Source: Saccostrea cucullata
Lineage: Eukaryota
Direction of reading: 5' to 3'
DNA: 64,000 nt
Assembly (NCBI RefSeq): GCF_032062105.1
Contig: NW_026920935.1
Coordinates: forward strand, 992,001 to 1,056,000
In this document: one piece after another, positions 37,701-55,092 of the stretch
Numbering within the stretch: position 1 is the first letter of the stretch
How the letters are laid out: the number at the start of each line of letters is the position of its first letter
The notes under the pieces: generated by a model
The model's database searches: none
What the model was told of the DNA's origin: nothing
Seen by the model: the letters and a program-made list of their open reading frames with translations, nothing else
Translations under genes and position numbers: made by a program

Positions 37701-38816
37701 CTGCTCAATGGCCCTGAGTGCCGAGTAAAGGTAAAAATTTGAAGCCTTTCACCGGCATACGGTGACGTCTCCATATGAGTGAAAAATTCGCGAGAGGGAC
37801 GTTAAACAATATACAATCTATCAATCAATCAATCAAAAGGTCTTGGATGGAGCTTGTTGAGCATTGTATTGACCAATGTTATTTTTTTCATAATCCATTT
37901 TTACTAGTTTCAAATGTACAACGTTTTGAATATTTGTTGAGCAGATTTTACATCATCAACACCCCCTCTTTAATGCCTACTTCCCGCTCGGTCACTCCTT
38001 CGCTTCAGTCCTAGGTACTATGCTGTCTGACGGGATCGCAGGAATCTCCACATCCTGGGTAAGTCTGGACATAACACATTCACATCTACTGTACTAAATA
38101 CAAAAAGCCGTGGATTGTTTAAAGGTGTGGTTAACATAGAGCTGAATTTGGATGTGCAGAGCGTCCAAAAAAATATTCCCAAAGGGTAAATAGTTCTCAT
38201 GTTTCTGGTTCCTTTTTAAATTAAATATAATGTATGCAGGTTCATGTATTGCATGGCTTTCATTCTTTGTTATTTTCAAAACAAATTTTCTGCGGTTGCA
38301 ACTTGTCTTTATTGTTTTAATCTTGTTTTTGTTGGCAGAAATACAAAGGTTTATATTAACGCTGTTCAAGGTTCATAAACCCTCTGCTCACTCATAAAAA
38401 ATGTTGCTTGAACCTTAATGACTTTTCAAAAGAAATGTATTTTATAACTTAAATAAAATACAAACAATTATAGCATGGCTCGCGCAGGCGCGGATCCAGA
38501 AATTTTTTGCAGGGGGGGTCTACCTCATTCAAAAAAAAATTCCAATCCCAGAAATTTCTTGACAAGCAAAAAAAAAAAAAAAAAAAAACGTCAATTCGCC
38601 CAAACGTGAAAAACCTATTTCGTGGGGGGGGGGGGGGGGGGGGGGGGGGGTAGTCAATGACTTCTATTGCCTCAAATCTCTCAAATTTCATACCAATTTC
38701 ACACATATACATGTTCACCAGGGGGGGTCAGCGTTTTCCAGGGGGGGGTCCAAGGTGACTTTTCTCATGCTTTAGTATATACATTTTTTAATCGGGAAAA
38801 TTCCAGGGGGGGTCCT

Positions 38817-38851
<35 letters not shown>

Positions 38852-52900: not shown

Positions 52901-55092
52901 AATAAAATTATTTTAATTGATTACATTTAATTGAACTGCAGTCTCCATCAGTTAATTTTTGACTGAAGCTCGTCAATCGTCGTTTCGTTTCTTAATCAAT
53001 TTTAACTGTATAATTTGGTAAACAATATCGTAAAAACACGAGAATAATATACGTTATACACGTGTAAAAATTTATCTCCTTTAGAATCAATTTGAACGAT
53101 CTTGGAACAGGGGACAAAATAGAAATCCAATTTCACATTATCAAGACCATGGCTTTCAGTACTCAGTATAAACTGCATGTATATAATAGTGCAAGATGTA
53201 TATTAGAATATTCATATCTAAAATCGTTACAATTATAAATGTTATTTATATCACACCCATACAACAAAATGAAACGGCAACATAGAGTCTTAGGGATATA
53301 CAGGGATATAAAAATAATACGACCAAGTCATGCCCTGCATAAAATTTCATATGTCTCATTTATGTAGATAACTTGTACGTGGCATTTATTTTAATCATGA
53401 ATGTTGAAAGGACATTAAGAGAATTTTTTTTTTTTGCTTCTTTCCATTGGGAGAGAGGTGGACTTTTTGGACCGTACGTATGCCCATTAGCCTTATTCTT
53501 AAATTATATTTGAATTCAGTCATCGGAATTTTGTTATTGTGAAAAGCTGGAGTTATGACATTCGTTTTGAAATTTCAGAACTGGGGCATTGGAATCACAA
53601 GACCATTCCGAGCTCTCAAACTGTGGTTTGTCCTGCGTTTGTATGGAATCAGTGGATTACAAGAGTTTATTAGGAGGGTAAACAGCGATTTGGTGTTTAT
53701 TTCATAATTCTGTAGATAATATACTTAGCACAAGAATTTCACACCAGTTTCCTTTTCAGCATATCAAACTAGCCAAGAGGATGAAAGACCATATTGAAAG
53801 CAACCATGCGTTCGAAATAGTTGGACAGTCAAATCTGGGATTAGTGGCATTCTGTATTAAGGTATCCTGTTAGCGATCTACACCTTGTTTGATGCTAAAT
53901 ACTAATACCCTTGACCTTCGATTACAAGTTGTTATTTTGACTTTTGTATCCTCGATTGATTGATTGATTGTATATTGTTTAAAGTCCCTCTCGAGAATTT
54001 TTCACTCATGGAGACACCACCACTTGCTGGTGGAGAGCTGAAAATTTTGTCCTATGCTCGGCACTCAGGGCCATTGAGCAGGGAGGGATCTTTTTCGTGC
54101 CAACACCTACTGCGACACGGGACCTCGGTTTATACGGTCTCATCCGAAGCATCGGTCTCCACGTCCCACAGTGGGATTCGAACCCGCGACATAAGGATCA
54201 ACTCCTTACTTTGCTACTCTTGAGCAGACATTCTAACCACTGCGCCACGCGGGCGACTCGAAAAAAGGAAACGGATGGCATAATTTGTTTAATTCTTATA
54301 TCTCATTTTAATACTTAACCCAAGTAAAGTAGGATTTGTCGTACACAATTAACGGCAATTTTCTTCGTATGAAACCAAATATTTTTGGAATACTTTCAAA
54401 GCTACAAAGAACCAAAAAATACACATAAATCATTAAGGGTTGGTGGAGGAAAAATTATGCATATTTTTGATAAAACCATAAGATTTCCGTAAAACGGCTG
54501 ATATCTCCGCATAATCAACAGAATTCTTGACATAAGCACAAAATTTTACTTTATTGGACGATTCCTTGTTTAATTATACCGGGTAAAACCTGATGTTGAG
54601 CTTTGGTTGTAATGCTTGAAGAATAAATCATATTTCGATATAAAAATGCGGAAAAAAATTTAAAACACTCAAAAATATTTTTAGAGTCAAATGTTTACAC
54701 TACCCAGGATCAAATCAAGGTTAACTGGTGTATATCCAAGAAATACTTTGACCTAATTCTCTTTCTTTGCCAGATCTGTAAAGTTTTAAAAATAAAACCT
54801 TTTTTCAATTTGATCTGGAATACTGCAATTCGGATGGACCATGTTAGGATGTCTTTCTGAGGGTTCTTAGTTAAACATGATGAATATTTTTCAGGGACCC
54901 AGCAGGCTTACTTCTACACTTCTGCGAAATATAAATGAATCCGGTAACTTACACCTGACGGAAGCTTCTGTCAATGGTCGTTCTGTCATCCGATACGTCG
55001 TCTGCGCCGAAAATGCAAAGGAAAAGGATGTCGATTTCGCATGGAGTGTCATCTCTTCTGCAGCTGACGGAATGTTTTCTGCTCGAGGATGA
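34768..55092 (+). CDS. PLP-dependent group II decarboxylase, aromatic-L-amino-acid decarboxylase (DDC/HDC/TDC) family, divergent paralog, 467 aa; candidate aldehyde synthase
   Basis: 14 phase-consistent GT-AG exons: 34768-34968, 37945-38058, 39357-39408, 39490-39554, 39722-39829, 40060-40170, 40719-40751, 41643-41804, 42028-42095, 45013-45083, 52705-52724, 53579-53677, 53760-53861, 54895-55092. Total 1404 nt, no internal stop. Motifs: MDAAEFR..VDFIADY, PDVKPGYL, AYFP, SPACTELE, ATVGTTSCCSFD, WLHVDAAYAG, FNPHKW (PLP Lys at 42058-42060), TYLQH, FRALKLWFVLRLYG. AATAAA at ~55150. Confidence 0.95.
35640..37118 (+). mobile_element. Degenerate Helentron-like element with decayed internal repeats and a nested insertion (~36417-36745)
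   Basis: Its 3' end AAGTTTGGTTGAAATT...GAAGAAG...GACGATGGACGAAAACGG...ACTCAGGTGACCTAAAAA matches the 3' end of 49433-51330. 5' boundary uncertain. Confidence 0.6.
37478..37834 (+). mobile_element. tRNA-derived SINE, apparently full length
   Basis: A box GGTAGTTCAGTCGGTAG, B box GAGTTCAAATC, body shared with four other copies, tail GGGACGTTAAACAATATAC(AATC)n. Confidence 0.85.
38485..38848. mobile_element. Short TIR element (hAT-like MITE) with long G and A homopolymer runs
   Basis: TIRs CAGGCGCGGATCCAG / CTAGATCCGCGCATG flanked by the direct repeat GCTCGCG. Confidence 0.75.
41005..41348 (+). mobile_element. Decayed Penelope-like RT C-terminal fragment
   Basis: LYDKPDD..VNFPYLCSNIP..PAYGV...FYGRYNDLVSKYNL-type sequence, matching ~62390-62715. 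Confidence 0.8.
43892..43923 (+). repeat. (GA)16 microsatellite
   Basis: Seen directly. Confidence 0.95.
45451..47469 (+). mobile_element. Helentron-associated non-autonomous element (HINE-type) with ~12 tandem ~155-bp repeats
   Basis: 5' AACCAGAAGTCTCTGTCGAGACTGAAGCTCTACTGGT, then a 155-156-bp period array, a (GACA/GACG)n microsatellite and the 3' hairpin AGCTCTTCTGGTC-TCT-GACCAGTAGAGCT. The 5' AGCTCTACTGGT is inverted relative to the 3' end. Confidence 0.85.
47647..48737 (+). mobile_element. Second copy of the 155-bp-repeat HINE-type element (~6 units)
   Basis: Same termini and repeat unit as 45451-47469. Confidence 0.85.
49433..51330 (+). mobile_element. HINE-type element of a second family with ~167-bp tandem repeats (>=7 conserved units)
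   Basis: 5' AACAAGAGGCCCATGGGCC..AGGTCACCTGAGT; units containing TTTTCACTATATAATCAATAGAGCCCCGCCCTAACACCAGAACC at ~167-bp spacing; GACG microsatellite; 3' hairpin TAGGTCACCTGAGT-T-ACTCAGGTGACCTA. Confidence 0.85.
53954..54257 (-). mobile_element. tRNA-derived SINE
   Basis: (GATT)n tail on the left; B box GGTTCGAATCC and A-box region on the minus strand. Confidence 0.85.

Follow-up and report, generated by a model that had tools for sequence, protein, structure and literature searches.

A tyrosine decarboxylase-like gene in the Saccostrea cucullata genome

We analysed a 64,000-nucleotide stretch of the genome of the rock oyster Saccostrea cucullata (assembly GCF_032062105.1, contig NW_026920935.1, positions 992,001 to 1,056,000 of the forward strand), hereafter the window. 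Its plus strand carries a 14-exon gene for a pyridoxal phosphate (PLP)-dependent group II enzyme that derives from tyrosine decarboxylase (TDC) and in which the histidine at residue 192 has been replaced by asparagine, suggesting that the product probably forms aldehydes instead of, or as well as, amines. The spliced gene model was derived from the window sequence alone; all 13 introns have AG/GT borders and the reading frame is open. Residues are numbered throughout as in human DOPA (3,4-dihydroxyphenylalanine) decarboxylase (DDC); HDC denotes histidine decarboxylase. The gene and its parts are as follows.

34768..55092, plus strand: whole gene, 14 coding exons, coding sequence of 1404 nucleotides (nt), product of 467 amino acids
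34768..34968, plus strand: exon 1, amino acids 1-67
37945..38058, plus strand: exon 2, amino acids 68-105, holding H71, Y79, F80, L82, I101, S102 and T103
39357..39408, plus strand: exon 3, 52 nt, with a boundary common to TDC and missing in both DDC-type genes
39490..39554, plus strand: exon 4, 65 nt
39722..39829, plus strand: exon 5, with S147, G148 and S149; 27 nt shorter than the TDC exon
40060..40170, plus strand: exon 6, starting with Ala-Asn192
40063..40065, plus strand: codon for Asn192 (AAC), where DDC, TDC and HDC have His and insect aldehyde synthases have Asn
40719..40751, plus strand: exon 7, 33 nt, TDC-type
41643..41804, plus strand: exon 8, with T246, D271 and A273
42028..42095, plus strand: exon 9, with N300, H302, K303 (the PLP lysine, 42058-42060) and T307-T308-T309-E310
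45013..45083, plus strand: exon 10, catalytic loop with A328, A330 and the retained Y332 (TAT, 45062-45064)
52705..52724, plus strand: exon 11, a micro-exon of 20 nt, equal in size to its TDC counterpart
53579..53677, plus strand: exon 12, with G350, G352, I353, T354 and P356
53760..53861, plus strand: exon 13
54895..55092, plus strand: exon 14, with R447 and the stop codon, without the TDC C-terminal tail of about 100 amino acids; contigs extend to 55181

The predicted product is identical to the S. cucullata record P0122 (XP_062597296.1), which is named 'tyrosine decarboxylase-like', and matches PF00282 over 375 of 375 profile positions (E 2e-117). Its AlphaFold model has a predicted local confidence score (pLDDT) of 91, and template-modelling (TM) scores of 0.97 against human aromatic amino acid decarboxylase (AADC) and 0.94 against PDB 6JRL. 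The PLP lysine and its contacts are kept (K303, D271, N300, S147/S149 and T246), and H302, R347, R447 and Y332 are also present.

The gene descends from tyrosine decarboxylase

Besides the window gene, the S. cucullata genome (G000) contains a TDC gene (contig C7663, protein P0244), a DDC gene (C8047, with His192) and a second gene with Asn192 (C13257). All 13 introns of the window gene match those of the TDC gene in position and phase, including those that delimit the exons of 52, 65, 33 and 20 nt. None of these exons is present in the two DDC-type genes, each of which has 11 introns. For family comparisons we used a set of 119 other members, drawn from the best 120 of 7630 matches among 7997 candidates scored. 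The nearest paralogs in this set are molluscan TDCs, at 52-54%; their TDC label rests on motif and tree, the records themselves reading 'AADC-like'. Phylogenetic trees place the window gene on the TDC side (Shimodaira-Hasegawa-like approximate likelihood ratio test, 99 in one tree and 99.8/100 in another), on a branch with a long stem (0.83-1.43 changes per site) and short tips. We conclude that the parent of the gene is a tyrosine decarboxylase.

The window protein shares 252 of 467 residues with the TDC of its own genome, G350 and C194 among them. It differs by H192N, N302H, W71H, A82L, G102S, F103T, F309T, L353I, S354T and R356P, by a 9-residue deletion in exon 5 and by the missing C-terminal tail; all six canonical-TDC residues that we considered (H192, W71, F103, F309, S354 and N302) are changed. 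An initial annotation of the window had described a coordinated remodelling of the substrate pocket relative to human DDC. The changes are real and concentrated in the pocket, but DDC was the wrong baseline: the TDC state is already A82, G350 and S354, and hence the substitutions given as T82L and G354T should read A82L and S354T, both smaller than had been stated. Synonymous sites are saturated between the gene and its parent (proportion of synonymous differences, pS, 0.81).

We dated the duplication with approximately unbiased (AU) tests on 26 rows and 472 columns, a set that left out Trichoplax, Steinernema, Lottia, Octopus, Solemya, Nematostella and most unnamed rows. An origin within Saccostrea was rejected (P = 0.003); hence, the duplication is older than the split of Saccostrea from other oysters. 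Sisterhood of the window gene to all oyster TDCs was not rejected (P = 0.13), and of 44 diagnostic columns the gene agrees with oyster TDC in 12, with gastropod TDC in 11 and with neither in 21. We found no ortholog outside Saccostrea, and nothing between the gene's own cluster and 54%, among the best 120 of 7630 matches, which list few molluscan TDCs; further searches reached at most 52% (short proteins, best 120 of 442) and 51% (best 150 representatives), and these searches were not exhaustive and do not show absence.

Asparagine at residue 192 is convergent with insect enzymes

Exon 6 begins with Ala-Asn in place of the Ala-His192 of DDC, TDC and HDC. Of the 119 proteins in the set, 94 have His at residue 192, 17 have Asn (15 of these are named insect proteins and two are unnamed) and eight have a gap, and Asn192 is also found in the Saccostrea echinata ortholog. 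The initial annotation had taken the PLP-binding core to be conserved; this does not fully hold, since His192 is Asn, pointing to a change of reaction besides a change of substrate.

The pair Asn192 and Tyr332 defines the insect 3,4-dihydroxyphenylacetaldehyde (DHPAA) synthases (DHPAAS), which depend on O2 and yield an aldehyde, H2O2 and NH3 instead of an amine. Both residues are reported to be required for aldehyde synthesis by DHPAAS (PMC13651850). In Drosophila DDC, H192N is reported to lower decarboxylase Vmax from 3357 to 285 and to raise aldehyde synthase activity from <=1% to 163 nmol/min/mg, the wild-type synthase having 270 (PMC6411801, reviewing Liang 2017). A Bombyx DHPAAS variant with Y79-F80-N192, which is the state of the oyster window protein, reportedly keeps 67% aldehyde synthase activity, and the N192H variant of DHPAAS 22% (PMC6494836), and in a bacterial DDC a residue-192 swap together with two more changes is reported to raise aldehyde synthase output (PMC8927377).

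Grouping the window gene with the insect amd proteins was rejected in the 26-row AU tests (P = 0.0006), as was grouping it with the second oyster Asn192 gene (P = 5e-5). Asn192 of the window gene therefore arose separately, and the His192-to-Asn swap is convergent with the insect enzymes. In a 40-row run that included long-branch sequences, the free tree fell short of the one constrained to oyster TDC by 34.7 log units, and the amd grouping had P = 0.19 against this poor tree.

We rejected the idea that this is the first Asn192 outside insects: Asn also aligns at this position in Trichoplax, a Steinernema protein and unnamed proteins (9 of 143 aligned representatives). Non-insect AADC-like proteins with Asn at 192 are P0289 and P0409 (Trichoplax), P0332 (Steinernema), P0290 and P0359. 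A different alteration, the plant-type aldehyde synthase switch of Tyr332 to Phe with His192 kept, is present in two DDC paralogs (P0048, P0070) of the tube-building annelid Owenia fusiformis.

The second Asn192 gene of the oyster was placed as follows.

G000 contig C13257, 183779-193137, plus strand: AADC paralog with Asn192 (loci L033 and L041), 12 exons, 515 amino acids, DDC exon structure (homology-guided model)

This paralog combines Asn192, Tyr332 and Val328 with an intact pocket of the canonical DOPA type (W71/Y79/F80/F103/F309/L353/G354). It falls with the DDCs (98.9/99), and its grouping with insect amd was not rejected (AU P = 0.26). As a candidate DHPAA synthase it comes closer than the window gene does.

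Substitutions are concentrated on the substrate side of the pocket

We confirmed in the spliced model each of the pocket substitutions noted initially: W71H (CAT, 37954-37956), Leu at residue 82 (CTC, 37987-37989), G102S-F103T (38047-38052), Thr-Thr-Thr-Glu at 307-310 (42070-42081, within exon 9) and T354 (ACA, 53597-53599). P356 lies at 53603-53605. The S. echinata ortholog aligns with human DDC free of gaps across residues 1-105. Beyond the substitutions listed at first, we found H192N, S193V, A148G and an altered catalytic loop (328 and 330) flanking the kept Y332.

Among the other family members, W71 and F103 are each present in 119 of 119, R356 in 118, L353 in 114 and F309 in 111. Among 150 diverse 50%-cluster representatives, 137 aligned; none of these 137 has His71, 132 have Trp there, and one has Thr103. 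At columns conserved in TDCs, five of seven substrate-side positions are changed, compared with 45 of 176 in the background (one-sided Fisher P = 0.017); the substrate-side list follows positions reported in PMC12078590, and positions 82, 101 and 309 were omitted from the test because their conservation is <90% in 16 TDCs. Of the TDC-conserved PLP and catalytic positions, one of eight is changed, to the DDC state.

Gly354 is reported to be important for DOPA specificity (PMC12078590), and Thr82 to bind the catechol hydroxyl (PMC6411801). Given T354, L82 and the loss of W71, F103 and F309, we infer, more weakly, that DOPA would be an unlikely substrate. The initial proposal of a non-canonical substrate thus stands in so far as a non-DOPA substrate seems likely, and needs extending in that His192-to-Asn also indicates a change of reaction, from amine to aldehyde.

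Altered pockets occur in other molluscan AADC paralogs, namely P0018 (Solemya velum), P0287 (Lottia gigantea) and P0299 (Octopus bimaculoides), with T354 in Solemya and Lottia. None of these three proteins groups with the window gene.

The gene is constrained and spliced

The S. echinata ortholog is identical at 427 of 467 residues and has the same residue at every pocket and catalytic position examined; the window protein is 91.4% identical between S. cucullata and S. echinata, against 98.1% for TDC. Compared over 328 codons with a second copy on contig C11917, the gene shows 22.5 synonymous changes at 232 sites and 7.5 nonsynonymous changes at 752 sites, giving rates (dS and dN) of 0.104 and 0.010 and a dN/dS of about 0.10 (Fisher P = 6e-9). 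The second copy is probably the other haplotype, because it is colinear with the window through the introns and the upstream flank, at 88-95% in long blocks. Two small contigs, C7043 and C22076 (L034 and L035), hold exon-1 copies with frame-breaking indels. These are likely haplotype fragments with assembly errors, since their alignment to the window continues across introns and the upstream flank, as it does for the intact second copy.

Each of four runs examined has contigs that cover exons 2, 5 and 14. Exons 3-7 are spliced together in contigs of runs X7 and X2, which stem from two studies, and a 1677-nt contig of X7 covers the last exon as well; the intron-free exon joints argue that the runs flagged 'RNA?' are mRNA. 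Ten codons have listed differences, seven of them synonymous and three in the variable 164-170 loop; in the RNA contig piece over Asn192 three of five differences are unlisted and the Asn codon is unreadable. Wide read mapping was dominated by intronic repeats.

The initial annotation had favoured neofunctionalisation over decay, expecting of a decaying copy that orthologs would not share the pocket and that dN/dS would be near 1. Its preference is borne out by the open reading frame, the splicing, the dN/dS of about 0.10 and an S. echinata ortholog with all pocket residues.

Proposed activity and alternative explanations

Taking descent, constraint and residue pattern together, we consider it on balance probable that this intact, spliced and constrained TDC duplicate encodes an O2-using and perhaps bifunctional aldehyde synthase with a non-catechol amino acid as its substrate. 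Judging from mutagenesis of other family members, the substrate would bind PLP at K303 and lose CO2; without the His192 proton donor, protonation of the quinonoid would be slow. O2 held by N192 and Y332 could then attack the quinonoid, and the enzyme would release an aldehyde, H2O2 and NH3, possibly accompanied by amine. Less firmly, T354 and L82 may close the catechol end of the pocket, and W71H, F103T and F309T may strip its aromatic walls; inspection of the residues suggests a non-catechol, aliphatic or small hydrophobic amino acid (of the Met/Leu/Ile/Val type, or Phe) as a possible substrate. Aldehyde and peroxide might, speculatively, serve matrix cross-linking or defence, the former by analogy with insect cuticle.

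Several observations weigh against an aldehyde synthase. Drosophila DDC H192N is reported to remain bifunctional, with more amine than aldehyde (285 versus 163; PMC6411801), and the role of residue 192 has been called hard to define (PMC7497351). Auxiliary DHPAAS features are missing from the window protein, namely F79/Y80 (Y79-F80 reportedly occurs in some insect groups too; PMC6494836), V328 and R330 (both Ala), the partner residue E196 (Gln) and G354 (Thr), and two residues of the proposed O2 tunnel, F103 and L353, are altered. In human DDC, G102S is reported to raise Km ~11-fold and lower kcat ~6-fold (PMC8003434), and F309L and L353P to reduce catalysis (PMC8003434, PMC3528064). Pocket changes of this kind damage the human enzyme, and activity on aromatic substrates could therefore simply be low. 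In the last exon, comparison with a copy on C20151 gave one nonsynonymous and no synonymous changes. Finally, among 12.8 M and 11.3 M records of two raw-read RNA runs, only six and two reads, respectively, fall on exons 3-7, which indicates weak expression or expression confined to other tissues.

The reading of the initial annotation, a plain decarboxylase with a new substrate, is possible but rather unlikely. On this view Tyr332 would act as proton donor to the intermediate and Asn192 would do no harm. Y332, K303 and the PLP contacts are kept, DDC H192N reportedly still forms amine (PMC6411801), Y79-F80 is reported as the decarboxylase-type pair (PMC6494836), and change is enriched on the substrate side. 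However, His192 is retained in 94 of 111 aligned family members, all 15 named exceptions among the best 120 of 7630 matches being insect DHPAAS-like, and its loss is reported to cut amine formation about 11-fold (PMC6411801).

We regard it as improbable that the protein performs other PLP chemistry or has a non-catalytic role kept by selection, such as a binding protein or a partner that modulates TDC or DDC. Changes at 25 of 139 family-conserved columns, the long stem branch (0.83-1.43 changes per site) and the reported damage done to human DDC by comparable changes (PMC8003434) would fit such a role, but K303, D271, S147, S149, T246 and R447 and the loop residues Y332 and R347 are kept in both species, and the TDC-conserved PLP and catalytic positions changed only once in eight, to the DDC state.

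A replacement for histidine decarboxylase is very improbable. No HDC ortholog was found in G000 with a limpet HDC query, in a search that scores best candidates only; the search gave only DDC, TDC, C13257, GAD-like and window-gene loci, at <=69% on single exons, and residue 354 carries a hydroxyl, as in HDC. Against this, the assembly comprises 23869 contigs, and a bioRxiv preprint (10.64898/2026.08.17.745212) reports one each of AADC, HDC and TDC per bivalve species examined, including two other oysters, Saccostrea not being among the species it lists. Tested as an HDC, the window protein lies outside the HDC clade and lacks the HDC-type S302 and H308 as well as H192; W71, F103 and F309, all retained in HDC, have been replaced, and N192 speaks against the formation of an amine. 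The genome also has four GAD/CSAD-like group II decarboxylase loci (on C20944, C1375, C15471 and C10698).

A decaying duplicate, to which the broken exon-1 copies on C7043 and C22076, the evolution faster than that of TDC (91.4% versus 98.1%) and the few raw RNA reads might point, is scarcely tenable and already largely refuted by the open frame, AG/GT borders at 13 of 13 introns, dN/dS of about 0.10, spliced contigs and a full-length ortholog in a second species, the broken pieces being likely haplotype fragments with assembly errors.

Other features of the window

The window contains the following further features.

about 16000-18400, plus strand: likely TNF-receptor-like gene, with exons encoding cysteine-rich stretches, a transmembrane segment (E 3e-5) and a weak death-domain match (E 0.048)
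37481-37555, plus strand: tRNA-like sequence (Thr), intron 1
45584-48646: 156-bp tandem array, 19.6 copies, intron 10
49890-51017: 167-bp tandem array
54163-54254, minus strand: tRNA-like sequence (Ser), intron 13
56347-57498: 156-bp tandem array, downstream of the gene

The tRNA-like sequences in introns 1 and 13 are probably the heads of tRNA-derived short interspersed nuclear elements. In the second haplotype, a 156-bp array lies in a different intron.

Implications and comparison with known aldehyde synthases

DHPAA synthase has been described as confined to insects, on a tree that covered arthropods, and proposed as a selective insecticide target (PMC13651850, 2026). Our search of the open-access literature returned nothing relevant on Saccostrea tyrosine or amino acid decarboxylase, molluscan DHPAA synthase or oyster aldehyde synthase. 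Rock oysters might possess a TDC-derived, insect-independent, O2-using aldehyde synthase with a new non-catechol substrate and, beside it, a DOPA-type Asn192 paralog, the two forming a joint aldehyde-plus-peroxide route for defence or for cross-linking of shell organics, ligament or cement; we put this forward tentatively and think it unlikely as a whole. If it were true, two oyster enzymes with Asn192 and Tyr332, one of them TDC-derived, would mean that a catalytic switch published as insect-confined chemistry recurs in molluscs. The oyster would then offer a candidate enzymatic source of aldehyde and peroxide for an underwater animal whose organic matrix is hardened and glued, and in the window protein the reaction switch would be found, in a natural variant, apart from the aromatic pocket.

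The closest known system is insect DHPAAS (amd; PDB 6JRL), with which the window protein shares the group II PLP fold, Asn192 with Tyr332, H302, D271 and K303. In contrast to DHPAAS, the gene is TDC-derived rather than DDC-derived and belongs to a mollusc. The DOPA-pocket residues W71, F103, L353 and G354 of the insect enzymes are H, T, I and T in the window protein, and F309, V328, R330 and F79/Y80 are missing as well. By descent, pocket and loop features the protein falls outside the insect DHPAAS family, but its residue pattern suggests that it likely works alike.

Plant and fungal aromatic aldehyde synthases, for which decarboxylation followed by oxidative deamination is likewise proposed (PMC7497351), lose the loop tyrosine (Tyr332 to Phe), whereas the window protein, when tested as a plant-type synthase, keeps Y332 and alters H192. 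Plant serine-decarboxylase-like aldehyde synthases, reported to act on Phe, Met, Leu and Trp (PMC4177580), provide a group II precedent for the formation of both aliphatic and aromatic aldehydes; they belong to a different subfamily.

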